Shown: one piece after another, positions 1,073-64,000 of the stretch
Position numbering within the stretch: the stretch's first letter is position 1
Layout of the letters: the number at the start of each line of letters is the position of its first letter
IMG/VR virus record: IMGVR_UViG_3300025437_000010
Coordinates: 32,001 to 96,000 of that record
Strand: one strand, 5' to 3'
Length of the DNA: 64,000 bases
Source: a virus
The notes under the pieces: model-generated
Seen by the model: the letters and a program-made list of their open reading frames with translations, nothing else
What the model was told of the DNA's origin: nothing
Database searches by the model: none
Translations under genes and position numbers: made by a program

Positions 1073-3718
1073 ATGAGAGCAAAACAATTTCTTGAACTTT
1101 ACGAAGCACAGCAGCAATTATTTGAAGTGGAAATGTCTCCTTCAAATTTAAGAAAACTTGCCAAAGGCATTGAAGGTGCCAAAGTTGGTATTGAATTTGA
1201 AATGGTTGTTCCAAACGTAAGTATAGAAAACAATGACGATGATGATGATGAAGTGAATTTTCCGGAACCAGAAATGAATAACCTATATGAACCTGCAAGA
1301 AGCATAGATGACATTGTTGAGTTCTTTGATAACCCTGGTTACAATGACTCACGCACAATCACCAGACTTAGAAACATATTAGAGACTAAATACCGAGAAT
1401 GGGCTAAGCAGTTCGTTGATAAACAATGGGACAAGAATGGAAAAGAATATCTTCTAAATTGGATTAGAAAAAATGTTAGCCCAAACAAAATTGCTGATTA
1501 TTTAGATTTACCCGAAGATTTGTTAGGTGATCGCATTCCTTCTAAGGAAGATTATGAAGAAGTAGCGTATGAAGAATGGATGCGCCCCGGCAATGCGGCT
1601 GGACATAATTATTATGATGCGGCATATGAATCATTTCGCGACGGTGATGTATTGCCTAATTATTATTATGATGAAGATGATGAAGACTCTGATCCGGACG
1701 AAAATAAAGAATATATATTTGGTTTTGACAGCGATGATGCCGATGATGCTGATGAAGAAACATTCTTAGAAAGTCTCGGAATCAATGATATGGAAGATGT
1801 GTATCATAACTCATTGAATAGCAATCATGTATTATCATGGCCAAGCTGGACTGATCCACAACCTGAATATAACAGTAGTAGTAGTTCTTCTTCTGGCGGA
1901 TCAGAATCAATACAAGATACCGCATTAGGGTTCATGAAGGCTCTCGGCTATGATTCAATTGCATATTCTACTTCATATCACGGAACATATTATAAATGGG
2001 ACGGTAACGATTGGGAATATTATGGTAATAAAAAACCAAATGATTGTTATGCGGTTGAGCCGGATACCAGCATAACAAAAAAGTCCGATGAGGCAGGTTT
2101 GGAGTTTGTGAGTCCACCACTTCCTCCAGAACAAATTATGGCAGATATTAAAAATATAAAAACATGGGCTAATCGCATTGGAGCCTATACTAATAAATCT
2201 ACTGCCATTCATACTAATGTTAGCGTTCCTAATTATGATATAGGAAAAGTTGACTATGTTAAACTTGCTCTATTATCTGGCGACAAATATGTCTTAGATC
2301 AGTTTGGTCGGACATTTAATGATTATACCAGTTCTTCACTAGATATTATCAAAAATAGATCATCTCGGTTATCTAATGAACAAGTAGAAAAGTTGTTGGA
2401 TAAACTAAAAAACAACGTGGAAGAAATAGCCAGCAATGAAATTCATGGACCATATTCAATGAAAAAAATGGTATCTGTTAATACCGGCGATCCGGCTGGT
2501 TACAATAAGAAAAGCGGTTATGTAGAGTTTCGTGCTCCGGGTGGCGATTGGCTTGGGACTAACTATGAAAAAATTGAGAATACGATTCTAAGATATATCG
2601 TCGCTCTTGATGCTGCCGGTAATCCTGAAAAATACAAACGTGAATATACTAAAGCGTTGTATAAAATACTAAAACCCAAGACTGCCACAGATAACATGAG
2701 TCTATTTGCTCAATATATGGCTGGTAATATTACCAAAGAAGCATTAGTAAGTAAACTTAAGGTTAAGAAAAAACCTTCACAAACAAACGATAAAATTGCT
2801 TCCACACAGTCAGGTGAAGATGAAACTATGTATAGATTCAGCACTCGTGATGGTTCAGTTGCGCCTGCTTATGCATCTGGTTCTGATCCAATGGAAGCAT
2901 TTGATAGATTAACTGCACGTAATGCTGTATGGAGAACTATGCCTATTAGTAATGTTCTTACTCATGTTGCTGAACCCAGTCGAAGACAAACTCCTCCTGA
3001 TGTTCAACAATTATCATCACCTGAACCTGATTCAATACCTGAATTAACCCGTGAATATCAACAGTGGTGTGAGCAACAAGGTCTTCCATATGTGGCAACA
3101 GAATATCAGGACTTTGATGAACTAACCGATGCGCAACGTGATTGGATAATGCGCTTTAATGTTCGCTGGTCGGCTGCAGAAGAAGCGCGTGATGCGCCCC
3201 AACAACAATCATCTTCCGAAAGAAGATTGTATTCAGTAAGAAATACAGACACAGGTGACGTAATGCAAGTTTTTGCAGATAGCCCCCTTAACGCAATGAT
3301 CGGTGCAAGAAGTGAAAATCCCGACTTCCGTAATGCTTCTCTTCATGCAGCAATAACTGCACCTGAACCAGATCAAACTCCCCGCCACACAGAAGGCGAA
3401 TCATTATATCGGGTGACCAATAATAACACTGGTGAGCAAATAACTATTGCCGCAGGTTCATTACAAACTGCATATGGCAGAGCGCAAAGAAACAATCCAT
3501 CATGGCAAGGCTCCATACTGACTGCCCGTCAGATTGGCTCTGATGAAATTAGTCCAGAATCTCCGACATATGATGTGCGTGATACAGCAGGAACAATACA
3601 TACATTACAAATACAAGCCAACAACGCCGATGAAGCCAGAAGAATAGCAAGATTACGTTATCCCGAACTTGACAGTCTTCCGGACACCAGACTTCTTGCA
3701 ACAAGAAGATCATCATAA
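1073..3718 (+). CDS. Putative amidoligase (COOH-NH2 ligase type 2) with acidic insertion and C-terminal repeated modules
   Basis: Motifs GIEFE, EPDTS, GLEFVSPP, STAIHTNVS and VEFR; C-terminal LY.V.N..TG....A.S...A modules. Confidence 0.75.
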   Translation: MRAKQFLELYEAQQQLFEVEMSPSNLRKLAKGIEGAKVGIEFEMVVPNVSIENNDDDDDEVNFPEPEMNNLYEPARSIDDIVEFFDNPGYNDSRTITRLRNILETKYREWAKQFVDKQWDKNGKEYLLNWIRKNVSPNKIADYLDLPEDLLGDRIPSKEDYEEVAYEEWMRPGNAAGHNYYDAAYESFRDGDVLPNYYYDEDDEDSDPDENKEYIFGFDSDDADDADEETFLESLGINDMEDVYHNSLNSNHVLSWPSWTDPQPEYNSSSSSSSGGSESIQDTALGFMKALGYDSIAYSTSYHGTYYKWDGNDWEYYGNKKPNDCYAVEPDTSITKKSDEAGLEFVSPPLPPEQIMADIKNIKTWANRIGAYTNKSTAIHTNVSVPNYDIGKVDYVKLALLSGDKYVLDQFGRTFNDYTSSSLDIIKNRSSRLSNEQVEKLLDKLKNNVEEIASNEIHGPYSMKKMVSVNTGDPAGYNKKSGYVEFRAPGGDWLGTNYEKIENTILRYIVALDAAGNPEKYKREYTKALYKILKPKTATDNMSLFAQYMAGNITKEALVSKLKVKKKPSQTNDKIASTQSGEDETMYRFSTRDGSVAPAYASGSDPMEAFDRLTARNAVWRTMPISNVLTHVAEPSRRQTPPDVQQLSSPEPDSIPELTREYQQWCEQQGLPYVATEYQDFDELTDAQRDWIMRFNVRWSAAEEARDAPQQQSSSERRLYSVRNTDTGDVMQVFADSPLNAMIGARSENPDFRNASLHAAITAPEPDQTPRHTEGESLYRVTNNNTGEQITIAAGSLQTAYGRAQRNNPSWQGSILTARQIGSDEISPESPTYDVRDTAGTIHTLQIQANNADEARRIARLRYPELDSLPDTRLLATRRSS

Positions 3719-5919
3719 TGAGAGCAAATGAATTCATAACAGAGTCATCGGGAGTAAGACTCAAAGATTTAGCCACTGTGAAAACTAATTTTCCGGATGC
3801 CGATTTCTGGCTTCAGCGCAAAGGTAGCGAGAAGTCTGTAGGCACACCAACCAAAGAGTTTTCACCAGAAAATATCGGCATCAAGGTAACGGCTACTGAT
3901 GTTCTTGATGCAAGATATCTGTATTACATGATGCAGCATATTCACAACATTGGATATTGGAAACAGTTTGCGAGTGGTGCATTGAGACTAGTCAATCTTC
4001 CATTACAACATGTTGCCAATCTTCCTCTTGGTATGAATGAATCTTTAAATGAAGATGAAAATGTTCAAATAAAAACTGACCTAACTTATACCGATAGCTA
4101 TCAGGGACAGGCAGACGGATTCATACTTGCATCTGCTAACGGTAAATCACCATGGGCGGATGAAGGAAATGGCTATTGTCCTAATGCAGTTGGTGGATTG
4201 GATTTTAGTATCTACGAAGGCAAGGCATTAATCAAAATGGTGCAGGTTAAGCCCGAATATCAACGCATGGGAATCGGATTGGCTTTAGTAAAAAGACTTG
4301 AACAAGAAGTTGGTAAGGGAAACATTGACTGGGGGATGATGACCGACACCGGAAAAGTATTACATGATAAGTATCAGAATTTAGATGAGGCGTTGCCAAC
4401 TTGGGCTAAAAAAGGTGAGTTTATAATTGAGTCAATCGGACCTGATACGATCTTTAATCAGGTGAAAAAAATTCACCATACCTTCCGAGATATAGAAGAA
4501 GGTGATTTACCTGACCGTATCTATTGGTTTAGTGAGTACAAGAAAAGTGAACTCCCGCTATCACTGCTTTATTTACATGAATTTTTTGTTGATGAGCAAT
4601 TGGTAGATGATTATGTAAAACTAATCCAATCTTCACCCAATACAATGCCGCCTATTGTATATGATCCTATCGCTGGTTCAATCATTGACGGTAATCATAG
4701 AGCCAATGCTTATGCTAAATTAGGCTATGACACTATACCCGCATACGTTGGGTTAACAAAATCTGACAGTTACGGTGAGCGTGAAAACGAAATTGACGAA
4801 GCATTTCCTTCTTGGGCTAAAAAAGGTGCATTGGCAGCAGGCGGCGCGGCTGCATTGGCGGCTGGTGGTGTAGCACTAAGGCATGCACAAGACGATAAGC
4901 CTCAAGTCAGATTTGAACTCCCAAATGCTAAATCAGCAGAGAACGCACTCCGCCAAGATGCAAAAATTCTCGCTCATACTATGTGGGGAGAAGCAAGAGA
5001 CCAAGGCATTGATGGTATGATTGCCATCGGCAACGTCATAAATAATCGTGCCAAGGATACGAAACATGCAAGAATGTTTGGACAAGGCATCAAAAATATT
5101 GCAACCAAACACAAGCAATTTAGTTGCTGGAATCCCAATGATCCAAACTTTAAGTATGCTAAAGAAATGGAAAAAATTGATCACATCGTCAACACAAAGC
5201 GCGCGCCGAACAACGAAGACTTCAATAAATGGTTATCAGAGTTTAAAAATACCGGAGAGTTTCTAGATTATAAAAAATGGCGTAAGAGTTTAGAACTGGC
5301 AACTAAAATTCTGTCTGGTCAACTTCCTGATCCAACTCATGGAGCAGTGTATTATCACACTAAAAACGTTCATCCTGAATGGGCAAAGAGTATGAAAAAA
5401 ATAGGCTCACTTGGTCAGCACGTTTTTTATTCTTTACCTACGGCTATAAAAGAAACTCATGAATTAGACGAATACAAAGTGGACAATGAAAATGGTTTGG
5501 GTCAAGTTCCATACAATGCTAATGTGGATTATATGGGATTACGAGTTTTAATGAAACCGAGTATATTTTTGAAACTTGCTCACAAATTAGAAAATCCCAG
5601 AAGCGTTGATCATATCGTGAATCACATTAAACAAGGTGGCGCATTGGGTTCTCCATTTTTGTCCATAGACATTCCCCGTGAATGGGAAGAGGGCGATTTC
5701 AAACATGATGCCAGAGTAAGCGGACACGAAGGACGCAATCGCATGATGGCTATTCAGCAAGTTGAAGGCGATGATCCAGTTGAAGTTCACCTATTTCCGC
5801 GTGGAGGAATGAGAGCCAGACATCTTACGTCAGAAATTATCAAGCATTTACAAGATAGTATGTTTGGACAAGACGGAAACTATGTGTGTGGAAATTTATT
5901 CCAATTAATGCAAAAATAA
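3718..5919 (+). CDS. Multidomain protein: HsdS-TRD-like fragment, GNAT, ParB/Srx-like, SleB/Hydrolase_2 cell-wall hydrolase, second ParB-like domain
   Basis: VKPEYQRMGIG (GNAT); IIDGNHR (ParB); LAHTMWGEAR...QFSCWN...DPTHGAVYYH...HVFY (SleB); GHEGRNR. Domains are separated by LNE/LDE/IDE linkers. Confidence 0.75.
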   Translation: MRANEFITESSGVRLKDLATVKTNFPDADFWLQRKGSEKSVGTPTKEFSPENIGIKVTATDVLDARYLYYMMQHIHNIGYWKQFASGALRLVNLPLQHVANLPLGMNESLNEDENVQIKTDLTYTDSYQGQADGFILASANGKSPWADEGNGYCPNAVGGLDFSIYEGKALIKMVQVKPEYQRMGIGLALVKRLEQEVGKGNIDWGMMTDTGKVLHDKYQNLDEALPTWAKKGEFIIESIGPDTIFNQVKKIHHTFRDIEEGDLPDRIYWFSEYKKSELPLSLLYLHEFFVDEQLVDDYVKLIQSSPNTMPPIVYDPIAGSIIDGNHRANAYAKLGYDTIPAYVGLTKSDSYGERENEIDEAFPSWAKKGALAAGGAAALAAGGVALRHAQDDKPQVRFELPNAKSAENALRQDAKILAHTMWGEARDQGIDGMIAIGNVINNRAKDTKHARMFGQGIKNIATKHKQFSCWNPNDPNFKYAKEMEKIDHIVNTKRAPNNEDFNKWLSEFKNTGEFLDYKKWRKSLELATKILSGQLPDPTHGAVYYHTKNVHPEWAKSMKKIGSLGQHVFYSLPTAIKETHELDEYKVDNENGLGQVPYNANVDYMGLRVLMKPSIFLKLAHKLENPRSVDHIVNHIKQGGALGSPFLSIDIPREWEEGDFKHDARVSGHEGRNRMMAIQQVEGDDPVEVHLFPRGGMRARHLTSEIIKHLQDSMFGQDGNYVCGNLFQLMQK
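4400..4828 (+). repeat. 18-bp exact direct repeat CTTGGGCTAAAAAAGGTG (4400-4417, 4811-4828) flanking the ParB-like domain
   Basis: Read directly from the sequence. Confidence 0.9.
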
Positions 5920-8007: not shown

Positions 8008-8463
8008 ATGAAAACCATAACAACACTAATGCTTTTTGGTATGCTGTTTATGAGTGAAACTGCGCATGCTGATCAAATAGTTCAGCAATTCAAAGACCCA
8101 TCATTCAATGGTATTAACTGGTCTAACCATGTTTTATCAATTGAATCAATAGAGGCGTCCAATAAATCAGCAAATACGAATGCACTTGCATCTGCACAGG
8201 CGGCTGCGGCAAATGCGGCTGCTAACACACCTCTTGCAAAATTTGTGTCTCTATTTGAATCTCAGGTATATTCACAATTGGCAACGCAATTATCAAATAA
8301 TCTGTTTTCAACAAGTGGACCATCATCAAATGCTGGAACATTTAACTTGGCTGGAAATAGTATTAGTTACGTAAAAACAAACAATGATGTTACATTGACT
8401 GTAGTAGATACTTCCGGAAACAAAACTATAGTTACAGTTCCGATAGCAACATTTGCATTTTGA
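8008..8463 (+). CDS. csgF: CsgF-like curli assembly protein
   Basis: Signal peptide (AHA), FKDPSFNG motif, F...ESQVYSQLATQL; adjacent to csgG. Confidence 0.75.
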   Translation: MKTITTLMLFGMLFMSETAHADQIVQQFKDPSFNGINWSNHVLSIESIEASNKSANTNALASAQAAAANAAANTPLAKFVSLFESQVYSQLATQLSNNLFSTSGPSSNAGTFNLAGNSISYVKTNNDVTLTVVDTSGNKTIVTVPIATFAF

Positions 8464-8474
8464 AGGAATAGAGT

Positions 8475-9320
8475 GTGAATAAACAGATTGCTTTACCATT
8501 ATTAATTCTATCAGCTTTATCCCTTTCTGGATGTATTGGTGCTATTAGTCCACGACTAAACAAAGACGTTGAAATCATGCGTGAGAAGGCAAGAATAGAA
8601 GGTTTCGCAAATCCAAAAATATTTGTTAATTTACCTGAATTGGATGGTCCTGCTATTCCTATTGCAGTATATAGTTTTACAGATAAAACTGGCCAACGTA
8701 AAAATTCATCCAGTGTTAGTAGTTTTAGCACGGCAGTTACTCAAGGTGCAGATGCATACTTAGTAAAAACTCTCTCAGATGTAGGAAACGGAAAATGGTT
8801 TAAGCCTGTTGAGCGCGTGGGCATTGAAAGCCTTATAAAAGAGCGTCAGCTTATACGTCAAATGCGTGAATTGGAATTCGGTGATAAGGCACCTCCATTG
8901 CCACCTCTTATGGTGTCAGGTCTTATTATTGAAGGTGGAATTATTGATTATAATAGTGACACCAAAACTGGAGGGAACGGGGTTCGCTACCTTGGTATAG
9001 GTCCGAATACTCAATATAGCCAAGATATGGTTGTCATAAATATGCGTCTCGTGTCTACGCAAACTGGGGAAGTCTTAGATAGCGTAACCGTAACAAAAAC
9101 TATTATCTCAACATCAGAAGGTTTAACTGCATTTAAATTTTTTGATTTAGGAACGCATGCTTTTGAACTTGACGCTCAACAGACAGCGAATGAACCGGGA
9201 AGTTATGCTATTCGTTCAGCAATTGAAGTTGGTGTAGTAGAACTAATCAAACATGGTGAAAAGAAAAAATTATGGCACTATAAAACTAATACGTTACCAA
9301 CCAATAAGGAATTAAAATAA
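8475..9320 (+). CDS. csgG: CsgG-family outer-membrane secretion lipoprotein
   Basis: Lipobox LSGC; AVYSFTDKTGQRK, STAVTQGA, WF..VER.G, ERQLIR, EGGII.Y. Confidence 0.9.
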   Translation: MNKQIALPLLILSALSLSGCIGAISPRLNKDVEIMREKARIEGFANPKIFVNLPELDGPAIPIAVYSFTDKTGQRKNSSSVSSFSTAVTQGADAYLVKTLSDVGNGKWFKPVERVGIESLIKERQLIRQMRELEFGDKAPPLPPLMVSGLIIEGGIIDYNSDTKTGGNGVRYLGIGPNTQYSQDMVVINMRLVSTQTGEVLDSVTVTKTIISTSEGLTAFKFFDLGTHAFELDAQQTANEPGSYAIRSAIEVGVVELIKHGEKKKLWHYKTNTLPTNKELK

Positions 9321-10141
9321 TGAAAGCAATAAAAATAATAAAATACGCATTAATTCTTAGTTCGCTATTTGTATCCGATGCTACATTTGCTCAGTCACTT
9401 ACGGCGGAATCTAATCCAACAAGTGTCCCATCTGCCGTTTTACCAACTCTACCAAATCCTCCTGCAATTATCGCCTCATCTCCTAATGAGCAGGCAGCAT
9501 CTACGTTGGACACAACTAACCAAGTATATATCAACCAGTCAGGATTTAATGTCAATGTTAATATCCAACAAACTGGTGTATCAGACTTGATTGGAAGCCT
9601 ATCATATCCAACTTTTCTACGTGGAGACAATCAAGTATTAACCGTGATTCAGACTGGAAACACAAACAATCTACAGTTAGGAATTATTGGTAACATTGGC
9701 GCAGGTGCCGGAACTACAGCAACTATTCAACAACTCGGCAATGGCAACTATGCTAATATTCAATGCGGAACTGGCAAAAACGATCCAAATTGTAATGGAT
9801 TAAATTTGAATGATAAATTTAATGGTAATTTCAATACTCTTAACTTTCATGGATCAGCCGCAAATATCACTCAAACAGTTGATATTGAAGGTAACAACAA
9901 CTACACTAATATCTTTTCCAACTCTCCAAATTCTTCACAGACATTATTGTTCAATGGTGAAAACAACACAATTAACGTAAATCAGACTGATGCAGGTGGA
10001 AACTATGGTCACAGTTTATTTGCAAATGTCATCGGAAGCAATAATACGCTTACTGTTCAACAATATGGTGCTTCAGAAACCGTAATCAATATTCAAAGCA
10101 CTGGCTCAAATGGCATCTTTAATATTAAAACCGGTCATTAA
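9320..10141 (+). CDS. Secreted curlin-like Q-x-G-x-x-N repeat protein
   Basis: Signal peptide; repeated Q.G..N strands; N/G/Q/T-rich. Confidence 0.65.
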   Translation: MKAIKIIKYALILSSLFVSDATFAQSLTAESNPTSVPSAVLPTLPNPPAIIASSPNEQAASTLDTTNQVYINQSGFNVNVNIQQTGVSDLIGSLSYPTFLRGDNQVLTVIQTGNTNNLQLGIIGNIGAGAGTTATIQQLGNGNYANIQCGTGKNDPNCNGLNLNDKFNGNFNTLNFHGSAANITQTVDIEGNNNYTNIFSNSPNSSQTLLFNGENNTINVNQTDAGGNYGHSLFANVIGSNNTLTVQQYGASETVINIQSTGSNGIFNIKTGH

Positions 10142-11279
10142 TTTAATTGGATTACTATGCTTGCTAATTGCCACCCCGGCGTTAGCAAGCATAGGGTCTA
10201 TTACCAATTTCAAAGGTGCTGGACAAATTAAACGTGGTTCCGCATCCATTCCTGCTAATCAAAATTCTGGCATTGAGAAAATGGACATTGTATCTACTAA
10301 CTCGCAAGGTAAGATAAAAATAACATTCATTGATGCAACTACTGTCAACATTACTGAAAACAGTAGACTCGTGATTGATGATTTTGTGTTTGATAGTAAA
10401 AATTCATCAAAGGGTAAATTGGGTCTTAAAGTGGCGTTAGGAACTATAAGATATACATCCGGCGCGCTGGCTCATGGAAATCCATCAGGCATTAACATAC
10501 GCACTCCTACGGCAACTATAGCGGTTCGTGGAACAGATTTTGTGATGTCCGTTGACGAAACTGGAGAATCTACGGTTATTCTTGTTCCAAATTGCTACGA
10601 TGATAAAGACATAACAAAAACTGAGTTTGATTGCTCATCCGGTGTTATTGAAGTCATAACTGCGGCTGGAATAGTAACTTTGAACAAGCCATTTCAGGCT
10701 ACTGTAGTCCAGAATTCATTTATACCACCATCACCTCCTATAAAAATTACTACTGCACTAAAAGTAATGAATAATAATATACAGATTTCTCCGCTTGCAA
10801 CTGATGATGGAAAAAGTTTAATTAAATTTGCAAAGAATGCAGCCACAAAATATGCCAACCCATCTAAGGCAATAGCAGATTCAAATAAAGACCCCACAAC
10901 AAATTCAAATGATAGCGCCGAAGAAGCAGAACTCGCCGTGCAACAAAAATCTTCAAGTCAAATCAATGATCAAAAAGATACACTTATACCCAAAATTACT
11001 GTTTCTGGTAGAGTGATATATACGAATGTATCACCTACCTATGTCAAACAGGTTCAGGAGGGGTGGGCATATGCGCGTATGTCAAGTGATAAAAATCAAG
11101 TCGTTGCAATATGGGTTGATCTTAAAACCGATACACAAATTATTTCGTCACAAGAAGGATTAATTGACTTCTACGATTTTGTGAATGCTAAGTATCCAAC
11201 TTCGGGATCAGGTAAAGCAACTGGTAACATAAATATAATACAAAATGGAGCAGTTCCACCAACTAATAGCGGAAAATAA
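10110..11279 (+). CDS. FecR-domain secreted protein
   Basis: Signal peptide; TPTATIAVRGTDF and ITENSRLVID motifs. Confidence 0.8.
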   Translation: MASLILKPVINLIGLLCLLIATPALASIGSITNFKGAGQIKRGSASIPANQNSGIEKMDIVSTNSQGKIKITFIDATTVNITENSRLVIDDFVFDSKNSSKGKLGLKVALGTIRYTSGALAHGNPSGINIRTPTATIAVRGTDFVMSVDETGESTVILVPNCYDDKDITKTEFDCSSGVIEVITAAGIVTLNKPFQATVVQNSFIPPSPPIKITTALKVMNNNIQISPLATDDGKSLIKFAKNAATKYANPSKAIADSNKDPTTNSNDSAEEAELAVQQKSSSQINDQKDTLIPKITVSGRVIYTNVSPTYVKQVQEGWAYARMSSDKNQVVAIWVDLKTDTQIISSQEGLIDFYDFVNAKYPTSGSGKATGNINIIQNGAVPPTNSGK

Positions 11280-11293: not shown

Positions 11294-13351
11294 ATGAAAA
11301 AATTAAAAAAAATACTAATAAATCCGTGGTTGGCTCTCCTGACATTTGCAATATTGCTTATAGTTAAACTATCAAATCCATATTTAATAGATGCAATGAA
11401 ACTTAAATTTTATGACTATCTAATGTTAAGTAAACCAATTCACAGTGATCAGATTGTAATTGCAAATATTGGTGAAAGGGCATTAGAGAAATACGGACAA
11501 TATCCATTTCCCAGAGATACATATGCAAAAATCGTCAACAATCTATATGATAATCATCATGCTGGTTTAGTTGGCAGCACCATAATGTTTCCAGAAAAGG
11601 ATAGGTTTGGCGGAGATGATGTGTTTGCTAAGTCGCTTACAGAGCATCCAGTGGTTCTAAGTCAAACTGTTTCTGCCGATTGCACACGCAACAATAGTTC
11701 AACCCGTAAAACTGGCGTTGCAATAGTAGGTGATGGCAAGCCAACAGAATTTTTACCAAATTATCCATGTGTTCTTGATAATATTTCAGTGTTGCAAGAG
11801 TCTGCTGTAGGTGTTGGTATAACATCAACGCTTCCTGAAACCGATGGTGTTGTTCGTCGCGTTCCTATGCTGGCAACATCAAAAGGAGATTATTATCCTT
11901 CGTTTGCATTAGAAATGCTACGTGCTGCTACAGGTGATCCAAGTTATCAGGCAAAAATAAATGAGACCGGCATTGAGGCAGTTCGTATTCCACAGTTTGG
12001 TAAAATTTCCACTGACGAATATGGTCGCGTGTTTGTTAATCCGAATTATGTATTCTCATCGTTTGAAGTAGGCGGGAATATTCCGCATCTCGGTGGTAAG
12101 ATCGTTCTACTCGGTGTGACTGCGAACGGTGTTGCAAACCCTGTAGCAACGCCGTCTGGTGCCCGAATGCCCCATCAGGTTCAGGCCAGCATTCTTCAGA
12201 CTCTGATAAATCAGGATTCTGTATCAATTCCGAATTGGGTTGAATTGGTTGATCTTCTGGCATTTTTTATTCTTTCAGTTGCTGTTATTGGAATGTCAAA
12301 CTTACGTTATTCTATTATATGGATCGCAATATTATTAACTGGATATATTTATGCTCCCTTCTATATGTATATACATAATAAAATATTATTTGATGTGTCA
12401 TTCAATGTACTGGCAGTTCTGATCATTTATATACATGTTTATTCAGTAAAGTTCATCAGTGAATTTCTACAGAAACAACAAATCAAGAAACAGTTCGGCA
12501 CATATCTAAGTCCTGATCTGGTTGCCCAATTGCAACGTCAGCCTGAATTGCTGCAATTGGGTGGCACTGAACAAGAACTTTCAATCATGTTTACGGATGT
12601 TCGTGGATTCACGACGATTTCAGAACATTATGGTAAGAACGTGCAGGGCTTGACAAAAATTATGAATCGGTATATGACTGCTATGACCAAAGCAATTTTA
12701 GAAAATAAAGGCACTTTGGACAAATACATCGGAGACGCTCAGATGGCGTTTTGGAATGCGCCGGTCAGCAATGAACAACATGCTCTGGATGCCGTGCGTA
12801 CTGCCTTTCAGATGTTAAAATCTCTTGAGGAATTTAATTATGAAGTCACCAAAGAAGGAGTCCCTGCTTTTGGAATGGGTCTGGGAATCAATACTGATAC
12901 CGTTGTTGTTGGTAATATGGGAAGTGATCAGCGTTTTGACTATACTTGCTTGGGAGACGGTGTTAATCTTGCGTCACGGTTGGAAGGGCAGTCAAAGCCT
13001 TATGGAGTCAGAATCATCATTGGTCCAAAGACCGCACAATATGTCAAAGACCGATACCAAATCGTAGAACTTGATCTTATTGCCGTTAAAGGTAAAACTG
13101 AGCCAGTAAGAATATATACGGTTTTGGAACAATTTAAAAAGATTGATGAAAATGCACATAATATGATTTTAAGTGCTTATAGGCTCGGTGCATGGAAAAG
13201 AGCACTGGTCATGATACAAACGCGTGGAAACATGTGGAATGGGCAACTGGATAATTATTACAAGATGCTTGAAGAGCGGATTTTAGAAATTCAAAAAAAT
13301 CCGCCCGCTCCCAAAGATTGGGACGGGGTATATCGCGCTACATCAAAATAA
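11294..13351 (+). CDS. CHASE2-domain class III adenylate cyclase (membrane-bound)
   Basis: GQYPFPR and DGVVRRVP (CHASE2); 3 TM segments; FTDVRGFT, DKYIGDA, GDGVNLASRLE, VKGK. Confidence 0.92.
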   Translation: MKKLKKILINPWLALLTFAILLIVKLSNPYLIDAMKLKFYDYLMLSKPIHSDQIVIANIGERALEKYGQYPFPRDTYAKIVNNLYDNHHAGLVGSTIMFPEKDRFGGDDVFAKSLTEHPVVLSQTVSADCTRNNSSTRKTGVAIVGDGKPTEFLPNYPCVLDNISVLQESAVGVGITSTLPETDGVVRRVPMLATSKGDYYPSFALEMLRAATGDPSYQAKINETGIEAVRIPQFGKISTDEYGRVFVNPNYVFSSFEVGGNIPHLGGKIVLLGVTANGVANPVATPSGARMPHQVQASILQTLINQDSVSIPNWVELVDLLAFFILSVAVIGMSNLRYSIIWIAILLTGYIYAPFYMYIHNKILFDVSFNVLAVLIIYIHVYSVKFISEFLQKQQIKKQFGTYLSPDLVAQLQRQPELLQLGGTEQELSIMFTDVRGFTTISEHYGKNVQGLTKIMNRYMTAMTKAILENKGTLDKYIGDAQMAFWNAPVSNEQHALDAVRTAFQMLKSLEEFNYEVTKEGVPAFGMGLGINTDTVVVGNMGSDQRFDYTCLGDGVNLASRLEGQSKPYGVRIIIGPKTAQYVKDRYQIVELDLIAVKGKTEPVRIYTVLEQFKKIDENAHNMILSAYRLGAWKRALVMIQTRGNMWNGQLDNYYKMLEERILEIQKNPPAPKDWDGVYRATSK

Positions 13352-13365
13352 AGATAAATATATTC

Positions 13366-13953
13366 ATGATAACAACCGAAATCATCCATGAATCTGCCGC
13401 TGATGTGCTGGCGAAGAAATTGCCTTCATTTGAAAAGCATGACTATGATACTATTGACAAATTAGTTCGTAATGTTGCTGATAAACATAGCATTACCAGT
13501 GATGCATTGCATGATATATTTGTCAAAAAATATCATAAAACTCCCAAGGCTTGGATTGAAGACCTCAAAGATTTGGATGAAACCAGCGGTAATCCTTCTG
13601 ATGATATTGGTGAAGAGGTAAAGAAATTTGCTGAATGGACCGGTCGCCGCCTCAACCTCAACCATCTTCCCAAAATTGAACTTAGTCATGACAGCGATGA
13701 TGCACAAAATAACCATCATACTGGTGGACACATGCCCGGTTCAGGATCGGTATGGGTTTATGCAAAAAATAGAAATCTTGTAGACATACTGAGAACCGTA
13801 GCACACGAACTTACCCATGTACGACAAGAAGAACTCGGAATGATCAAACCAGGATCAAGCTATCCCGGAAGTCCAATAGAATTACTAGCCGATATGGTAG
13901 CTGGAAAACTGATTAAGATTTATGGCGAAAAGAATCATCACATCTTTCAATAA
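13366..13953 (+). CDS. Two-domain protein with C-terminal HExxH zincin-like domain
   Basis: VAHELTH with downstream E; ATG 5 nt after TAAATA. Confidence 0.65.
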   Translation: MITTEIIHESAADVLAKKLPSFEKHDYDTIDKLVRNVADKHSITSDALHDIFVKKYHKTPKAWIEDLKDLDETSGNPSDDIGEEVKKFAEWTGRRLNLNHLPKIELSHDSDDAQNNHHTGGHMPGSGSVWVYAKNRNLVDILRTVAHELTHVRQEELGMIKPGSSYPGSPIELLADMVAGKLIKIYGEKNHHIFQ

Positions 13954-14279: not shown

Positions 14280-15971
14280 GTGTCATATGTTGATGCCATC
14301 CTTTCAATAAAGGATGATAAAATACATGTGGTAGAGCGAAGCCCTGAAGGCAATCGGATATACAAAGAATATCCAACAAATTATGTTTTTTATTACCCTG
14401 ACCCAAAGGGAAAGCATCGTTCTATTTTTGGTAATCCACTTAGTAGATTTTCAACTCGCAAGAGAAATGAGTTTGAAAAGGAAAAGCGGATTCATGGTAA
14501 CAAAAAACTATTTGAAAGTGATGTTAATGCGGTATTTAGATGCTTGGCAGACAACTATCTCAATGTAGAACCTCCCAAGTTACATACTTGCTTTTTTGAT
14601 ATTGAGACGGACTTTGATCCTGAAAAGGGTTTCAGTCCGACAGACGATCCATTTAATCCAGTCACGGCGATTTCTTTGTATTTGGATTGGAAAGATCAGT
14701 TAATCACTCTTGCTATTCCACCAAAACACATGACCGATGAAACGGCGCAAGAGTTAGTGCGTGACTTTCCTAACACGTTTCTGTTTCGTTCTGAAATTGA
14801 AATGTTTGAGACATTCTTCCAACTGATTGAAGATGCCGATATTCTCACTGGGTGGAACTCAGAGGGATACGATATTCCTTATTGTGTAAATCGGGTAACC
14901 CGAATTATGTCTAAGGATGATACACGTAAGTTCTGCCTTCTTGGTCAACTTCCGAAGATTCGCACATATGAACGATTTGGTAAAGAAGAAACTACCTACG
15001 ATTTAGTCGGGCGAGTTCATATGGACTATTTGCAGTTATATAAAAAGTATAACTACGAATCGCGCCATAGTTATTCTCTTGATGCAATTGGTGAAATGGA
15101 AGTAGGTGAACGTAAGACTCAATATGAGGGTTCACTTGACCAGTTATACAATCAAGATTTCAAAACCTTTATTGAATATAACCGACAGGATACTATGCTT
15201 ATGGTGAAGATTCATCGTAAGACTAAGTTTCTTGAATTAGCAAACGCACTGGCACATGAAAACACAGTGTTGTTACCAACGGCTATGGGTTCGGTGGCGA
15301 TGATCGAAATGGCGGTCATCAATGACGCACATTCTCGTGGATTTGTCGTTCCCGATAAGAATAGGAAAGATGGACCAAGCGATGACCAACAGGCGGCTGG
15401 TGCATATGTTGCCACACCACAGGTTGGAATGCACGAATGGGTGGGAGCAGTGGATATTAACTCACTGTATCCTTCTGACATTCGTGCATTGAACATGTCA
15501 CCAGAAACCATCGTTGCTCAGGTTCGTCAGACTCTTACCGAACAGTATATGGCTGACAAAACCAAAAAAATCAAGCAAAGCAAAAAACAGAGCAAAAGAA
15601 AGGATAGCACTACTGACAAAGAAATAACTGCTGCTTTGTTATGGGAAAATCTTTTTGGATCGCTTGAATATACTGCGATCATGAATCAGGAACGTGGCAC
15701 TATATTGATCGTTGACTATGAAGACGGAAGATCAGTAGAAATGTCTGCTGCTGAAATCTGGAAGATGATATTTGACAGCAATAATCCATATATTCTCTCT
15801 GCGAATGGCACGATCTTTACCTATGAAAGGGAAGGAGTCATCCCCGGTTTGCTATCAAGATGGTATTCAGAACGTAAGGCTACACAAAAGCAAGCCAAGA
15901 CGGTCAGAACTTTAAACTCTGGTATTGAAATCAATTCAAAATTAGCCGAAAAACTTAAAAAAATACTTTAA
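14280..15971 (+). CDS. Family B DNA polymerase, N-terminal subunit (exonuclease, motif A, first finger helix)
   Basis: FFDIETD, GWNSEGYDIPY, YNRQD, DINSLYPS, WYSERK. Confidence 0.92.
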   Translation: MSYVDAILSIKDDKIHVVERSPEGNRIYKEYPTNYVFYYPDPKGKHRSIFGNPLSRFSTRKRNEFEKEKRIHGNKKLFESDVNAVFRCLADNYLNVEPPKLHTCFFDIETDFDPEKGFSPTDDPFNPVTAISLYLDWKDQLITLAIPPKHMTDETAQELVRDFPNTFLFRSEIEMFETFFQLIEDADILTGWNSEGYDIPYCVNRVTRIMSKDDTRKFCLLGQLPKIRTYERFGKEETTYDLVGRVHMDYLQLYKKYNYESRHSYSLDAIGEMEVGERKTQYEGSLDQLYNQDFKTFIEYNRQDTMLMVKIHRKTKFLELANALAHENTVLLPTAMGSVAMIEMAVINDAHSRGFVVPDKNRKDGPSDDQQAAGAYVATPQVGMHEWVGAVDINSLYPSDIRALNMSPETIVAQVRQTLTEQYMADKTKKIKQSKKQSKRKDSTTDKEITAALLWENLFGSLEYTAIMNQERGTILIVDYEDGRSVEMSAAEIWKMIFDSNNPYILSANGTIFTYEREGVIPGLLSRWYSERKATQKQAKTVRTLNSGIEINSKLAEKLKKIL

Positions 15972-15975
15972 GTGA

Positions 15976-15998
15976 TAAATACCCTATACGGAGGTATT
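15976..15998 (+). promoter_or_regulatory. Late promoter overlapping an RBS-sequestering hairpin for the HNH gene
   Basis: TAAATA at 15976-15981; AATACC (15978-83) pairs with GGTATT (15993-98) over GGAGG. Confidence 0.6.
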
Positions 15999-17177
15999 AT
16001 GAACTTAATTGATATAGAAACCATTATGAGAGACATGTGCAGTATAAAACATGAACACTCATTTAAACGATACCTAAAATTGATTGAAATTTACAGAAAA
16101 TTAAATTTATCCAAGAAAAGTTTTGGAAAAGGTGAGATTGAAGCGCATCACATTCTTCCAAGTAAAATATGGCAAGAATATAAAAAAGAAAAATGGAATA
16201 TAGTGAACCTACCCGTCCGTGCTCATGTTATCGCGCATTATCTACTTTATAAATTTTTACCAAAATCGGAGTGTGTGTTTGCGTTTAATCAGATGCACAG
16301 AGTTTCCGTAAAAACAGGAAAGTTAAACGCCAGATTATATGCCAAAGCGAGAATTGAATTGGCGCAGTTGGTAAGCAAAGTCAATTCCGGCAGAAAATGG
16401 TCAGATGAACAGCACAAATTGCATAGAAAAATTCATTGTGGTAAAAACACATATCGCAATATCACATCTGGAGAGTGTAAAAAGTTTATAGTAGGAGATG
16501 AACCGGCAGGATGGGAGCCGTTCCAGACTGGTCGGACAAAGAGTATTGCAGCAAAAGAAAAAATGGGAGAGTCAATGTCTGGAAGAATATGGCAATATCA
16601 TTCGGAATCTAAAGAGGTTAAATTTGCAAACTTTTTAATAGATGGGTTTACGAAGGGAATACCGCCATGGTTTGTCTATGATCATGCAGAAATTACGAAA
16701 ACCTACAAATGGGCATATAATCCGGATACAAACGAAGTTATTCGGTGCGCAGAAATTGATATTCCCGTTGGGTTTGAATTGGGGCGGGACCCGTCTTATG
16801 TTAACAAAGGATTTGAAAAAATAAATCAGTCCGGTTTATGTAGGATGCTGGACATTGAAGACAAATGTTATACGCTAGTATCAGAAGATATTTTACCTAA
16901 CCCACGATATGTTAAACATGGTGCTTGTGTTGACGATATTTATGTGATATTATACAAAGACAGTATTTATTATTCTTGGGTTGATGTAGAACGAGAACAC
17001 CCAGAATTGCCGAAAATGAACAAAAAGAGAGATATCTCTCTACTTGACTACGTTGTGCCTAAAAAGCATTTTAACCAAACACCAGATAGGCAACGTTTTT
17101 GTGAAATGCATCATGGTAAAACATTTGGAGAAATTGGAATATCTATGCGAAAACTAAAGGAAAATGACAATGATTGA
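15999..17177 (+). CDS. Free-standing HNH homing endonuclease
   Basis: EAHHILP...NIVNLPVRAHVIAHYLL; NUMOD-like repeats ending GWEP and GFELGR. Confidence 0.8.
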   Translation: MNLIDIETIMRDMCSIKHEHSFKRYLKLIEIYRKLNLSKKSFGKGEIEAHHILPSKIWQEYKKEKWNIVNLPVRAHVIAHYLLYKFLPKSECVFAFNQMHRVSVKTGKLNARLYAKARIELAQLVSKVNSGRKWSDEQHKLHRKIHCGKNTYRNITSGECKKFIVGDEPAGWEPFQTGRTKSIAAKEKMGESMSGRIWQYHSESKEVKFANFLIDGFTKGIPPWFVYDHAEITKTYKWAYNPDTNEVIRCAEIDIPVGFELGRDPSYVNKGFEKINQSGLCRMLDIEDKCYTLVSEDILPNPRYVKHGACVDDIYVILYKDSIYYSWVDVEREHPELPKMNKKRDISLLDYVVPKKHFNQTPDRQRFCEMHHGKTFGEIGISMRKLKENDND

Positions 17178-17362
17178 TACAGAATATATCAACACCCTAA
17201 TAAAGACAGAAGACGTTGATGGTCTTGCCGCGTATATGAAAAAATATAAATTGCGATTATCCGCAGACAACAAAATTATTGGTGATGCGGATGTTGTTGC
17301 TGAATCTTATGCTTACTGGGATAAAAGACAACTCGTGCGAAAAATTCTCCTAAACTCTGCGT
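17164..17362 (+). CDS. DNA polymerase C-terminal subunit, exon 1
   Basis: Own AAGGA RBS and ATG; YWDKRQLVRKILLNSA (motif B). Confidence 0.85.
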
Positions 17363-17642
17363 TAATTCCTAGCGCCCTTGTGTAGTGATACACACTGAAT
17401 AACCCGTCTAATTGCTGGAAACTCTCATTGCGTAATGGCAGAGACAATCAGCAGCCAAGTAGAAATAGATTATTTCTAAAGGTTCAACGACTAGCCCATA
17501 GTGGCGTAAGCAATAAGCCAATGATTGCTGAAACGGCGGGGGTCTATACTTAATAGATCGTGATATAGTCTGTTCTAATATGAAAATATTAGCAGCATTT
17601 TAAATGCGGATGTGAAATTGCTAATCACATTGAACACTAAAG
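17363..17642 (+). ncRNA. Group I intron (IA-like), ORF-less, 280 nt
   Basis: Exon-terminal U pairs with G in P1 (GCGU/GCGC). P AATTGCTGGAAA, Q AATCAGCAG, R GTTCAACGACTA, S GATATAGTC. P3 CCCGTC/GGCGGG; terminal G. Splicing restores LNSA-Y-GALLN. Confidence 0.92.
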
Positions 17643-55925: not shown

Positions 55926-55994
55926 TTGACAATAGATCGGTTATTTGTTATATTTGTTCTTTAGAAAGGATATAACATGACCCGTATCGCTATC
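55926..55994 (+). pseudogene. Relict promoter, RBS and 5' end (MTRIAI) of the metallophosphoesterase
   Basis: TTGACA-N17-TATATT, AGAAAGGA, ATG at 55977; GCTATCCGAC resembles GCTTCCGAC at 56820. Confidence 0.5.
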
Positions 55995-56637
55995 CGACAT
56001 ATGTCGCAGAATATCCTTTGATTTTAGGATGCTTGGATGTTGTTCCATCACGCAACACACCATATATTAGATGAAATGGTAATCCCAATTCTTTACAAGT
56101 ATGTCTAAGATTCCCAAAACATTCTATTTTTTTGCCTAAAGGATCAACAATAAGTATCCGTCTTGCTCTGGGATTATTTTTTCCAGAGTTATCTTTACCT
56201 TTAAAGTTTGCAGATCGTTTCTTCTTAAGTTCATCGGCTTTTTCTTTACCATATAGTTCTTCGTATGATTTACCTTTAAACCTATCTGTAGCAACTTTTC
56301 CTTGTGCCGCTTTCACCTCATCTGTGTGAGTTTTTCCGTACATACCGTTGCCCTCCCCTCGCGCGCCACCACCGTCGCCGTATTCTTCTTTAAGATTAGC
56401 CCACTCTTTACTTTCTACTACATTCCACAAAGCACTGTAATATAGCCCCCATTCCCTAACTTCTTCGTTAGTTTGACATTCTCGCAGGATTTCCGTAGTG
56501 ACATCATATCCATGTTTTTTTATATGGTTTTGCCATCTTTTGCCGGAACCTTTATATTTATGTGGGTCTTGTGTAGTTTTTCCGAGGTAATTGAGACCGG
56601 TTTTGTTATGGGTCTTCTTGTACAAATAAATAGTCAT
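55990..56637 (-). CDS. GIY-YIG homing endonuclease with NUMOD3-like repeats, antisense insertion
   Basis: IYLY...GLNYLGKT...Y.GSG; NGMYGKTHT; late promoter at 56700-56705 (-). Confidence 0.85.
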   Translation of the reverse strand: MTIYLYKKTHNKTGLNYLGKTTQDPHKYKGSGKRWQNHIKKHGYDVTTEILRECQTNEEVREWGLYYSALWNVVESKEWANLKEEYGDGGGARGEGNGMYGKTHTDEVKAAQGKVATDRFKGKSYEELYGKEKADELKKKRSANFKGKDNSGKNNPRARRILIVDPLGKKIECFGNLRHTCKELGLPFHLIYGVLRDGTTSKHPKIKGYSATYVG

Positions 56638-59116: not shown

Positions 59117-59559
59117 AGCCAACATTACTCTCCCTTACGGACAATTACAGCCCATTGTAGAATGGTGTGAACGTAATTGCACTGGAGACTGGCGGTTTAT
59201 GGAAAACGTTGAAGATCAATTTAACGGTTTTGATTTTCTATTTGAATCCGAACGTGACTACGTAGCATTTTTAATCTGGAACAAATGATATGAAGTTTTT
59301 AATTTTTAATCGTGAATCAAACAACTTTGATGACATCCTACAGGACATCAAGACCAATAAAATTGGTTATAAAATACGGTTTCATAACCATTTGATTGTC
59401 GGTTTTGAGAACAACAAAGATGATATGCAGTCACTATTCACACTGAAATATGGCGATGATATGATTAATTTTAGTCATATCATTCCTGATCGCAGTCCCG
59501 TTATGAACAAAGATTATATTCCTGTCAAAAAAATGACTAACCGTCGCCGCAAATCTTGA
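59088..59559 (+). CDS. Two small ORFs of the C-terminal-motif family
   Basis: FESERDYVAFLIW; FTLKYG. Confidence 0.55.
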
Positions 59560-59590
59560 CAATAGCGACGTTTTTTGATATAATAATCTT

Positions 59591-60133
59591 ATGAAAATAA
59601 ACGATTTAATAGAATCCGAACAAATAGGCAAGCCTATTTGCTATGTTGATATGGATGGCGTTCTTGCAGATTTGTATTCTGATGCCGCAGAATTTAGTGA
59701 TGTGGAACACTATAATGATATGACTAATGATCAATGGGAACGCTTCTTTAAGGATTCAGATGCGTATCATTTGTTTCGCGATGTAAAGCCCTTTTCCACA
59801 GCGAACGCACTTATCCAACTCGTGAAGAAATATGCTGGTGGATATACCATTTTAAGCAGCCCTCTAAGATTTGATGAAGGCGGAAGCATCAAAGGTAAGC
59901 GTGAATGGCTACAAAAACATGTGATCATCAAGCCTGATAATGTTATTTTTGAGCGCGAAAAATACAAATACGCAGTTCAGCCTGACGGAACACCAAATGT
60001 CTTAATTGATGATTGGAAGGGAAATACTATTCCTTGGAGCAATCACGGTGGTGTTGCTATCAAATATCAAGCGGATGAGGATTCTCTGGATAAAGTAACG
60101 AATGTGTTACAAAATGTTTTCTGTGATAAATAA
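59591..60133 (+). CDS. 5'(3')-deoxyribonucleotidase (NT5C, HAD)
   Basis: YVDMDGVLAD, ILSSP, K.EW, LIDD. Confidence 0.85.
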   Translation: MKINDLIESEQIGKPICYVDMDGVLADLYSDAAEFSDVEHYNDMTNDQWERFFKDSDAYHLFRDVKPFSTANALIQLVKKYAGGYTILSSPLRFDEGGSIKGKREWLQKHVIIKPDNVIFEREKYKYAVQPDGTPNVLIDDWKGNTIPWSNHGGVAIKYQADEDSLDKVTNVLQNVFCDK

Positions 60134-62033: not shown

Positions 62034-62045
62034 TTAAGAATTAAT

Positions 62046-62261: not shown

Positions 62262-62306
62262 AGATATATTTCAAAACACATTTGTGCATGCTTGAATAAA
62301 TACAGT

Positions 62307-62867
62307 ATGCGCGAAATAATAAACCTTTTGGAGGCAAAATCAAAGCCTCAAGACATTGAAATCATCCCACTTAACTTCACTGAACGTGAAGTTAATCCTG
62401 TTATGGGTAAAGATACGCTTGATCTTCACTATAATAAGTTAGCAAAAGGATATGCACAACGCTACAATGATGGTGAAGGTGATCCTGACTTTAACTATGC
62501 TGGTGCATTCCTGCATAATATGTGGTTTCCACAATTTAGAGAAGTCAGAGAAAACAACAAACCAAATGGACCAATGTATACCTTTATAAATAAGCACTTT
62601 GGTAATTTTGATAAATTCAAAAATGATTTTCTTGAAGAAGCAATGAAGGTTCAGGGGTCAGGCTGGGTATATCTTGCCTATGACGGCAAAATTAAAACAA
62701 TCAAAAACCATGAAGTCCGAGACGATATACTGCTTCTTGTTGACTGGTGGGAACACGCATTTTTATTAGATTATGGGTCAGATAAGAAGAAATATCTCAA
62801 AGAACTTTGGAAGATTATCAACTGGAATGTGATGTCAACAAGGCTTGGAAAGTCTTGGAGTTCATAA
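62307..62867 (+). CDS. Fe/Mn superoxide dismutase family protein
   Basis: LHY, LHN, GSGWVYL, DWWEHA. Confidence 0.85.
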   Translation: MREIINLLEAKSKPQDIEIIPLNFTEREVNPVMGKDTLDLHYNKLAKGYAQRYNDGEGDPDFNYAGAFLHNMWFPQFREVRENNKPNGPMYTFINKHFGNFDKFKNDFLEEAMKVQGSGWVYLAYDGKIKTIKNHEVRDDILLLVDWWEHAFLLDYGSDKKKYLKELWKIINWNVMSTRLGKSWSS

Positions 62868-62870
62868 ACA

Positions 62871-64000
62871 ATGAGAGCATCCGACTTTGAAATCCACAAC
62901 TACAAAAAGCTGGACAAAATCCTTCTCAAATTGTGTGAGATGGTCATAGAGGAACACCATGATAATCCCGAGATGGATGGTCTTGTTGGTGCAGCCGTCC
63001 TTGATCCAAAAAACAACATCGTCACTGGCATAAGCACTAAATCAGATGACAAGTGGATTCATGCTGAACGTGAAGCCTTAAATAAATATGAAGCCAAATA
63101 TGGCAAAGTTCCAGAAGGTAGCATTATTGTTACCACATTAAGCCCATGCAATGATACTATGCATGATAGATATAGTGAAAGTTGCACTGATCTAATTAAT
63201 GCGAGTCCTGTTAAAAAAGTATACTGTGGATACACTGATCCAACACAAACTAAAAATCAACGTAAATTTACACAGTTAGAAACTGGAAACAGAAAAATCA
63301 GGGAAATTTGTATGAGGATTTCAGAAATATTTTTGAAAAACAAAAATGACTTTATTAAAGAATCGCCAGAGCTTGATGAAATGGCGTTACAGCAGTTTAC
63401 TCCGTTAGGTGACTTTGAAAAGCCGGGACCATTCAGAGGCGTTGATAAGCGTTTAGTTCCTCATCCAAAAAATCAATTGAAAGCTGTTAAGTTTTTTGAG
63501 AAAACTCCTTATGATTTCAGACTATTCTTTAGTAATATTCCCGGAACTGGTAAATATGCTGAAATTGGCTCAGTAAGCCCCGAACAGCTAAAGAAAATGT
63601 TTGGCGACCAAGCGCAACCAATCTTAGATGGGAGTGTTGATGCTATCACTGTGGTGTTTGTAGGTAACAGTGGTGATGCGAAAGTAATGATGACACCATG
63701 GATTATGGCACATAGATTCGGGCATGCTGTTCAGGCAGGAAGCAGAAATAATAGAAACTGGAACGTTTGGACTGAAGCGGAAAAGCACTTCTTTAGTTCC
63801 GTTAATAACATGCTTGAACAATATTATGGAAAACTTCGTAACAAAAATCTTGATTTTGCAAACCGCTCAGCAGTTAAGTGGGACATGACACCAGAATATA
63901 ATGCCTTGTTTAACGCAATTGGCACTCAACGTAGCAGTCGGACTGGCCAAATTCGTCGTCCATATGAATTCCTGTATGAATTGTTTGCTCAGTATTTAGG
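62871..64000 (+). CDS. 3'-partial protein: CDA-type deaminase domain plus zincin-like (HRxxH) domain
   Basis: My translation, open to the window end: HAE...SPC...C, linker FIKESPELDE, then AHRFGH...E..YE.FAQY. Confidence 0.75.
   Translation, partial: MRASDFEIHNYKKLDKILLKLCEMVIEEHHDNPEMDGLVGAAVLDPKNNIVTGISTKSDDKWIHAEREALNKYEAKYGKVPEGSIIVTTLSPCNDTMHDRYSESCTDLINASPVKKVYCGYTDPTQTKNQRKFTQLETGNRKIREICMRISEIFLKNKNDFIKESPELDEMALQQFTPLGDFEKPGPFRGVDKRLVPHPKNQLKAVKFFEKTPYDFRLFFSNIPGTGKYAEIGSVSPEQLKKMFGDQAQPILDGSVDAITVVFVGNSGDAKVMMTPWIMAHRFGHAVQAGSRNNRNWNVWTEAEKHFFSSVNNMLEQYYGKLRNKNLDFANRSAVKWDMTPEYNALFNAIGTQRSSRTGQIRRPYEFLYELFAQYL

Follow-up and report, generated by a model that had tools for sequence, protein, structure and literature searches.

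A capsid-targeting sequence (CTS) on the internal proteins of bacteriophage T4 was reportedly described by Mullaney and Black in 1996. Diverse among the T-even phages, these internal proteins have only the CTS in common, which puts them onto the scaffolding core (PMC3012670). In T4 the sequence is found on IPI-III, with Alt, and is taken off by the prohead protease gp21 (PMC3012670, PMC5694885), and the prohead proteases of T4-type and giant phages cleave after Glu (PMC5694885). The ejection proteins of phiKZ-like phages (SPN3US, phiKZ) are likewise head-internal, are processed after Glu by a T4-related protease and include paralogues with conserved N-termini; their propeptides, however, are mostly longer than 100 residues with the motif A/S/G-X-E, they belong to another lineage and capsid, and their processing was demonstrated by mass spectrometry (PMC5694885). 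Polyvalent proteins, chains of shuffled effector domains with a predicted role in delivery with the DNA, are proposed to use MuF-type anchoring and self-cutting by a zincin, in a text that does not contain the phrase 'capsid targeting' (PMC5512222). Here we describe a short N-terminal peptide, the tag, with the consensus MRAxEFITE, that opens unrelated proteins encoded in a 64,000-nucleotide stretch of viral DNA (the window), bases 32001-96000 of the 110,198-bp IMG/VR contig IMGVR_UViG_3300025437_000010, which CheckV estimates as about 30% complete.

Judged by sequence comparison, it is reasonably probable that the tag MRAxEF(I/L/V)TE and its variants act as a T4-type capsid-targeting propeptide and cleavage signal. 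The variants that most likely count among its forms are MRAKQFLELYE (amidoligases), MITTEIIHE (zincin), MREIINLLE (superoxide dismutase, SOD) and a class II form, MKIN(D/E)..xE. We infer that late-promoter operons would make the tagged proteins, that the tag would dock them on the scaffolding core of the assembling prohead, and that a gp21-family prohead protease would remove the tag by cleavage behind the Glu of [I/L]-x-E, leaving mature enzymes that would remain in the head and reach the host together with the DNA. Packaging of these enzymes and their injection are probable. Six genes of the window carry the N-termini in question, and are designated A to F below, with a downward arrow marking the predicted cut.

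1073-3718, plus strand: gene A, 881-aa amidoligase-family protein; tag MRAKQFLELYE↓A at nt 1073-1105
3718-5919, plus strand: gene B, 733-aa polyvalent protein; canonical tag MRANEFITE↓S at nt 3718-3744
13366-13953, plus strand: gene C, 195-aa zincin-like protein with HELTH at residue 147; variant tag MITTEIIHE↓S
59591-60133, plus strand: gene D, NT5C-type 5'-deoxyribonucleotidase; class II look-alike MKINDLIE↓S
62307-62867, plus strand: gene E, Fe/Mn SOD with a 14-17-residue N-terminal extension; MREIINLLE↓A
62871-64000 (continuing to 64208), plus strand: gene F, 445-aa protein with a cytidine/dCMP-deaminase domain and a C-terminal module; half tag MRASDFE

Occurrence and conservation of the tag

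A preliminary description of the window had listed six similar N-terminal peptides at 1073, 3718, 13366, 59591, 62307 and 62871, and each was confirmed as quoted by reading the sequence. Across the 189 open reading frames (ORFs) of our own gene calling over the whole contig, the pattern M[RK]A.[EDQ]F stands at the start of seven, where 0.008 would be expected (P about 5e-19), and the complete form M[RK]A.[EDQ]F[ILV].E at the start of four (0.0001 expected). Four tagged genes lie just beyond the window (genome 27916, 30449, 96242 and 96649, where 'genome' denotes a position on the whole contig), and the ORFs opening with M-R-A-x-(E/Q/D)-F are as follows.

Genome 27916: 173-aa GNAT
Genome 30449 and 33073: amidoligase paralogue pair
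Genome 35718: protein B
Genome 94871: deaminase (F)
Genome 96242: 136-aa protein
Genome 96649: 574-aa protein containing a GNAT

Three tagged ORFs start with GTG or TTG (GTG AGA GCA, TTG AGG GCA; beyond the window, L004:6242-8373 and L003:7916-8437), and the conserved tag thereby pins starts that gene callers could miss. The tagged proteins of the contig differ from one another directly past about residue 10, and the DNA upstream of their genes is unrelated.

The same peptide is widespread in IMG/VR. A degenerate DNA pattern for MRAxEF(I/L/V)TE was found in at least 120 stretches, compared with 6 matches for a control made of the same letters reversed plus one extra N. Among the matches listed there were 138, every one with its ATG opening an ORF; 130 of these ORFs were complete, with lengths of 66-501 aa, and clustering of the parts downstream of the tag separated about 18 unrelated families. 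The largest family consists of proteins of 113-139 aa, often in tandem, to which the 136-aa protein of the contig belongs, and others include GH19 lysozyme-like proteins, GNATs, DUF6267 proteins and an Fe/Mn SOD. The codons of Ala3, Glu5, Phe6, Ile7, Thr8 and Glu9 vary synonymously, broadly as in genome usage, and only Arg2 is codon-biased (AGA 81%, compared with about 25% genome-wide). As the residues stay fixed while their codons vary, selection acts on the peptide, and the shared N-terminus is thus a genuine peptide signal under selection. We found no description of this tag in the literature.

Lineage of the source phage

The split DNA polymerase encoded by the contig is 44-47% identical to those of Phosso, PA5oct and Atu_ph07, all jumbo phages. 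Its family-B gene lies at window positions 14280-18700 in two parts (563 aa and 322 aa) with an HNH homing-endonuclease gene (15999-17177) between them. A complete relative of 352,754 bp (G002) has 61 of the 189 contig ORFs in common with the contig; in comparisons of its capsid protein, identity is about 65% with PA5oct, Phosso and Vibrio phage 2.275.O, and 62% with the Serratia BF/Yersinia fHe-Yen9 group. These polymerase and capsid identities place the source phage, which is uncultured, among the jumbo myoviruses of the T4 superfamily. A tblastn search of cultured phages with the 136-aa tagged protein gave no match.

Resemblance to T4 head-processing sites

The preliminary description had compared these N-termini with the T4 CTS, MKTYQEFIAE of IPIII, and with gp21 cleavage sites. 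The T4 record (NC_000866) bears this out: the N-termini of IPII and IPIII both read MKTYQEFIAE↓A, and further sites are GSFLTE65↓A66 in gp23, MAKINELLRE↓S in gp24, MLKEQLIAE↓A in gp22 and MELITE in Alt. The match with the tag is close, as the E-F-I-x-E core, with a small residue next, is common to tag and CTS, and F-L-T-E is common to tag and gp23 cut site. Within the window the tag ends in [L/I]-x-E in five proteins (A, LYE↓A; B, ITE↓S; C, IHE↓S; D, LIE↓S; E, LLE↓A). A Peptidase_S77 protein of the gp21 type is encoded by all five large tag-bearing contigs tested, and the N-termini of these proteases contain YLKE and VVE↓S and, in a single protease, LLTE↓A. In G002 an S77 protease gene lies at 224562-225188. 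The capsid-protein N-termini read ...EALLE↓G in G002 and ...SALTE↓G in PA5oct. At the N-termini of G000 and G002 the generic motif phi-[ILV]-x-E shows only about 2-fold enrichment (p about 0.006), and it is not significantly enriched in PA5oct.

In its overall layout the proposed system parallels that of T4, where unrelated proteins also share a conserved N-terminus some 10 residues long, the gp21-family protease is likewise present in the lineage, the genes follow late promoters, to which the late-type TATAAATA-like motifs here would correspond, and the IP locus resembles the small tandem tagged genes of about 125-135 aa seen here. The tag consensus is one residue shorter than MKTYQEFIAE. Unlike T4, the phages that bear the tag form an uncultured jumbo clade close to PA5oct, Phosso and the RaK2-like phages and use several interchangeable tag variants. 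Most of their putative cargo can be recognised as enzymes (SOD, GNAT, amidoligase, lysins, zincin, polyvalent proteins), whereas that of T4 consists of small basic or anti-restriction proteins.

Tagged enzymes and variant tags

Homologue and orthologue sets were gathered without using the tag as a search criterion. Upstream of gene A lies a paralogue, and together they form the amidoligase pair.

1-1046, plus strand: C-terminal part of the amidoligase paralogue; whole gene at genome 30449-33046, its MRAKQFLELYE tag upstream of the window

The Amidoligase_2 profile (PF12224) matches the paralogue with E=1e-7 and gene A with only 1.4e-3, below the cut-off, and most homologues have a precomputed PF12224 assignment. 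An [LI]xE motif ends at residues 5-13 in 113 of 120 homologues, in forms that include MRAKQFVPIVEA and MKATDIYSLFEA, with E11 invariant and A12 nearly invariant. Zincin orthologues of gene C exchange MRATEFITES, MRYTEFIIES, MQAKEFITES, MIGNEIILES and MITTEIIHES at one place, and a class II tag is tied to class I in the same manner, since one orthologue of B (P0006) starts with MKINEVLTES where the others read MRAxEFITES. The orthologues of gene D have mixed N-termini, namely MRAxE[LF] without [LI]xE, MKIxELxE and MLIREIISE.

The SOD encoded by gene E (Sod_Fe_C, 5e-25) carries a variant tag in 80 of 80 orthologues, 77 with MR(D/E)xIxLLE or near and three with MLEFIKxLE. E9 is invariant, even in a 55%-identical SOD (L078) with the canonical MRAVEFLTE. 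Also invariant are H41, H70, D146 and H150, the last two within a DWWEHA motif, which we take to be the metal ligands. Solved SODs (155 matches) align only from residue 18-22 of the gene E product onward, and in the AlphaFold2 (AF2) model, whose mean predicted local distance difference test score (pLDDT) is 86, residues 1-10 average 55 and residues 8-13 lie below 50. By alignment and model alike, the tag is an add-on to the SOD fold.

Of the enzymes that the preliminary description had proposed as head cargo, amidoligase, GNAT, cell-wall lysin (SleB/GH19), zincin, SOD and the ParB-like polyvalent protein do carry the tag; the deaminase has no cut site at its N-terminus. On their sequences we count A, B, C and E as members of the tag system. 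The membership of D and F is doubtful, and nucleotidase D and the N-terminus of the deaminase would be its weakest parts.

Module joints in the polyvalent protein and the deaminase

Protein B combines, like the polyvalent proteins, shuffled effector domains of GNAT, ParB-like and cell-wall hydrolase type (PMC5512222), and the class Pfam families PF18760, PF18765 and PF22028 accompany its cassette. Unlike that scheme, B has a T4-type tag as its address and prohead-protease-type Glu motifs at its joints, and the zincin is here a separate tagged gene (13366). The modules of B are a GNAT (aa 144-200), a ParB-like cassette (aa 232-362), a SleB-type cell-wall hydrolase (aa 403-574) and a C-terminal domain (aa 605-720), and the candidate joints in B and F are these.

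4381-4800, plus strand: inserted cassette of B between the repeat copies LDEALPTWAKKG (aa 222-233) and IDEAFPSWAKKG (aa 359-370), each with [LI]DE↓A
4417-4431, plus strand: internal relic tag EFIIE↓S of B (aa 234-238), at the start of the ParB-like cassette
5446-5472, plus strand: sites IKE (aa 577-579) and LDE (aa 583-585) of B, in the linker between hydrolase and C-terminal domain
63351-63362, plus strand: junction FIKE↓S of F (aa 161-164), where a stand-alone deaminase of about 160 aa from G005 ends

The cassette has the ParB-like consensus IDGxHRANA, and copies 60-80% identical to it occur in proteins with PF18760, PF18765, PF22028 and PF02195; the ParBc profile does not attain E=0.01 in B. 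Three orthologues of B (P0005-P0007) are without residues 230-353, the cassette, and split and fused forms are also found. A free-standing homologue (P0009) that starts with MRAKEFIVES aligns to B residues 234-731, from the internal GEFIIES, and because its N-terminal tag falls on the internal EFIIE of B, we conclude that B arose by fusion of tagged genes, the sequence at the joint being a retained relic tag. Across homologues the cassette always starts with [FG][IV][IV]E↓S[VI][DG]P.

With breakpoints taken from BLAST alignments (112, 231, 357, 395 and 574), five of the ten internal [LI]xE sites of B lie within 10 residues of a breakpoint (permutation p=0.008). All [LI]xE motifs that the preliminary description had noted at domain borders (LNE112, LDE224, IIE238, IDE361, IKE579, LDE585) are within B. 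Residues 575-604, which include the linker sites, have low pLDDT in an AF2 model that is poor otherwise too (mean 49.5) and fixes no domain border beyond the C-terminal domain. Cutting into pieces at the joints of B and F, through the same Glu-ending motif as in the tag, is plausible for these two proteins and would not amount to a general rule. Most polyvalent homologues of B have no internal tag-like core.

Homologues P0014-P0025 and P0075 of other contigs, which have the same cassette, show other conserved starts (MEYIDSLQSE, MTSDLAKLME, MDINELESFK), followed by a stretch of 35-45 residues ending in EG(I/V)(I/V)E↓S; in other phage groups, such N-terminal regions may serve as longer propeptides.

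Predicted promoters and timing

Promoter-like elements precede the tagged genes or their operons.

1046-1052, plus strand: ATAAATA late-promoter-like motif, 21 nt before gene A
13354-13360, plus strand: ATAAATA motif, 6 nt before gene C
62296-62302, plus strand: ATAAATA motif, 5 nt before gene E
59556-59584, plus strand: TTGACA-17-TATAAT sigma70-type promoter before gene D, as read from the sequence

B follows A, and F follows E, without a gap. The preliminary description had placed TAAATA promoters upstream of all these genes but the one at 59591, directly or in the same operon. Several operons of the contig, tagged ones among them, have ATAAATA(C) about 20-25 nt upstream, in G002 ATAAATA lies 16-25 nt before structural (head and tail) genes, and among zincin orthologues it is found at most 40 nt upstream in 56 of 79. 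An ordinary 5' leader would not fit into the 5-6 nt that separate the motif from C and E. In both the contig and G002 (21764-21775) the motif stands 4-5 nt before the SOD start codon and, if a promoter, would give a leaderless or nearly leaderless mRNA.

Evidence for and against capsid targeting

Several observations weigh against capsid targeting. A relaxed tag pattern is absent from PA5oct, Atu_ph07, Phosso, Vibrio phage 2.275.O and RsoM2USA, and neither the PF03420 protease nor T4 head proteins were matched on the source contig, a negative that is uninformative for a fragment about 30% complete. Neither the N-terminus of F, MRASDFE, nor that of its G005 homologue contains [LI]xE; many orthologues of D have MRAxE(L/F) with no cut site, and gene D itself sits behind an early-type promoter. 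In the amidoligases the conserved catalytic core begins directly at the tag, without a linker. The I-x-E↓S that opens the cassette of B could belong to the fold of that domain, and the breakpoint test on B was made after the motif list of the preliminary description was known. The claim of that description that (L/I)-x-E marks domain boundaries held for B and for the FIKE↓S junction of F, but not for the amidoligases, whose [LI]xE counts are not enriched (7 against 8.2 expected, and 10 against 11.4) and in which the module border of gene A near residue 565 has no such site; a general enrichment in 'polyproteins' was rejected on these grounds.

Particle data from the cultured relative PA5oct point, if weakly, the other way. 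Three of its proteins were flagged in particles by electrospray ionization tandem mass spectrometry, against a background of 93 of 461 proteins (PMC7318152): the tag look-alikes EST35_0150 (MKINDIITEG), whose gene lies between those of portal and protease, and EST35_0238 (MKIKDILVES), and EST35_0261, a SOD homologue (..YISIAE↓A). The support for packaging is weak because the particle list also includes a ligase, FtsH, QueD and a recombination nuclease, all plainly non-structural, and is therefore noisy. For RsoM2USA the virion data comprise 10 gel bands only.

Three other explanations have to be set beside capsid targeting, and each of them explains less. The tag might be an expression cassette that aids translation initiation or nascent-chain handling and has spread among late genes by recombination, with no targeting. 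Translation prefers A-rich second codons, which the AGA bias at Arg2 fits, several tagged genes are translationally coupled and without a clear Shine-Dalgarno sequence, and recombination could be driven by an 11-nt identical core, GAATTCATAAC, of which there are three copies; the nucleotidase and deaminase orthologues whose half tags lack a cut site would suit a cassette as well. Nonetheless, we regard it as quite unlikely, as the synonymous codons vary at positions 3 and 5-9 where the residues are fixed, variant tags still retain the Glu and, two positions ahead of it, the hydrophobic residue, three copies begin with GTG or TTG, and B has the motif internally as well, at a module joint that plays no part in translation initiation. 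It is similarly improbable that a partner other than the prohead recognises or docks the tag, be it a phage ClpX-like unfoldase (as a degron or in remodelling) or a cytoplasmic multi-enzyme assembly. The context for this possibility is one gene of the window, whose membership in the tag system is not shown.

36970-38169, plus strand: ClpX-like ATPase gene with a zinc-finger-like N-terminal start, MSDKKLHTCSFCGNHK

PA5oct, moreover, has ClpX and ClpS next to its SOD homologue, the tag is short, exposed and a low-confidence helix in the AF2 model, and SOD, nucleotidase and deaminase would make sense in the cytoplasm too. Docking of this kind leaves unexplained, however, both the close match to the T4 CTS and gp21 sites and the match to the presumed protease and capsid processing sites of the clade itself; in addition, the PA5oct look-alikes are particle-associated, and delivery by the virion is classic for cell-wall hydrolases and for ParB-like polyvalent proteins (PMC5512222). 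Finally, the tag could be a protease-removable pro-peptide that serves inactivity or maturation only, with packaging otherwise determined or, for single-domain enzymes, not occurring. The abutment of the amidoligase tag on its catalytic core is in keeping with such a role, as are the long N-terminal stretches that precede the same IIE↓S junction in other relatives and the unsettled role of the long propeptides of giant phages such as SPN3US (PMC5694885). We consider this unlikely, given that T4-type prohead proteases work inside the prohead, so that cleavage implies co-localisation with the core (PMC5694885), and that the 10-residue CTS of T4 alone suffices to package foreign proteins (PMC3012670, PMC5694885).

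Neighbouring genes

Adjoining the amidoligase paralogues, genome 28445-29980 (L003:8445-9980) encodes a 511-aa protein with two gamma-glutamyl-cyclotransferase (GGACT/AIG2) domains, which together with the amidoligases could make and remove an amide-linked modification. Its N-terminus, MKTNDIE (genome 28445), was rejected as a tag, the family profile beginning already at residue 4. An untagged Dps/ferritin-like gene inside the cluster of tagged genes, shortly upstream of the window (genome 30005-30445, L003:10005-10445), has its own ATAAATA motif, and a 51%-identical copy lies in the equivalent cluster of G002, beside three tagged genes.

At 11294-13351 the window encodes a CHASE2 and adenylate/guanylate cyclase protein that is 37-38% identical to its counterparts in pelagimyophage HTVC008M and Methylophilales phage Melnitz. 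The HTVC008M cyclase is directly downstream of the curli genes CsgF, CsgG and CsgB, and upstream of the cyclase gene in the window, at 8008-11279, are signal-peptide-like ORFs. A minus-strand paralogue pair (window 55990-56637; genome 15059-15718), both with the start MTIYLYKKTHNKTGL, resembles copies of a mobile endonuclease-type gene.

Implications for giant-phage biology

We offer tentatively, as a possibility short of an expectation, that the tag and its variants are an address code readable from sequence for a whole clade of uncultured 190-520-kb phages. The injected proteome of such a phage could then be listed from its genome alone, and it would include ready-made enzymes that are not known as head cargo of phages, among them a zincin, lysins, an Fe/Mn SOD and amidoligases with GNATs, which modify proteins or metabolites. 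On this view, polyvalent proteins would be built by fusing tagged genes and be resolved at relic tags by the head protease, and not only by self-cutting. Should the tag work as in T4, the proteins delivered at the time of infection would be predictable for a large, environmentally common group of giant phages; among these proteins there appear to be enzymes for oxidative stress, acetylation, amide ligation, nucleic acids and the cell wall. Large-capsid phages could also be engineered with the tag as a portable packaging signal.

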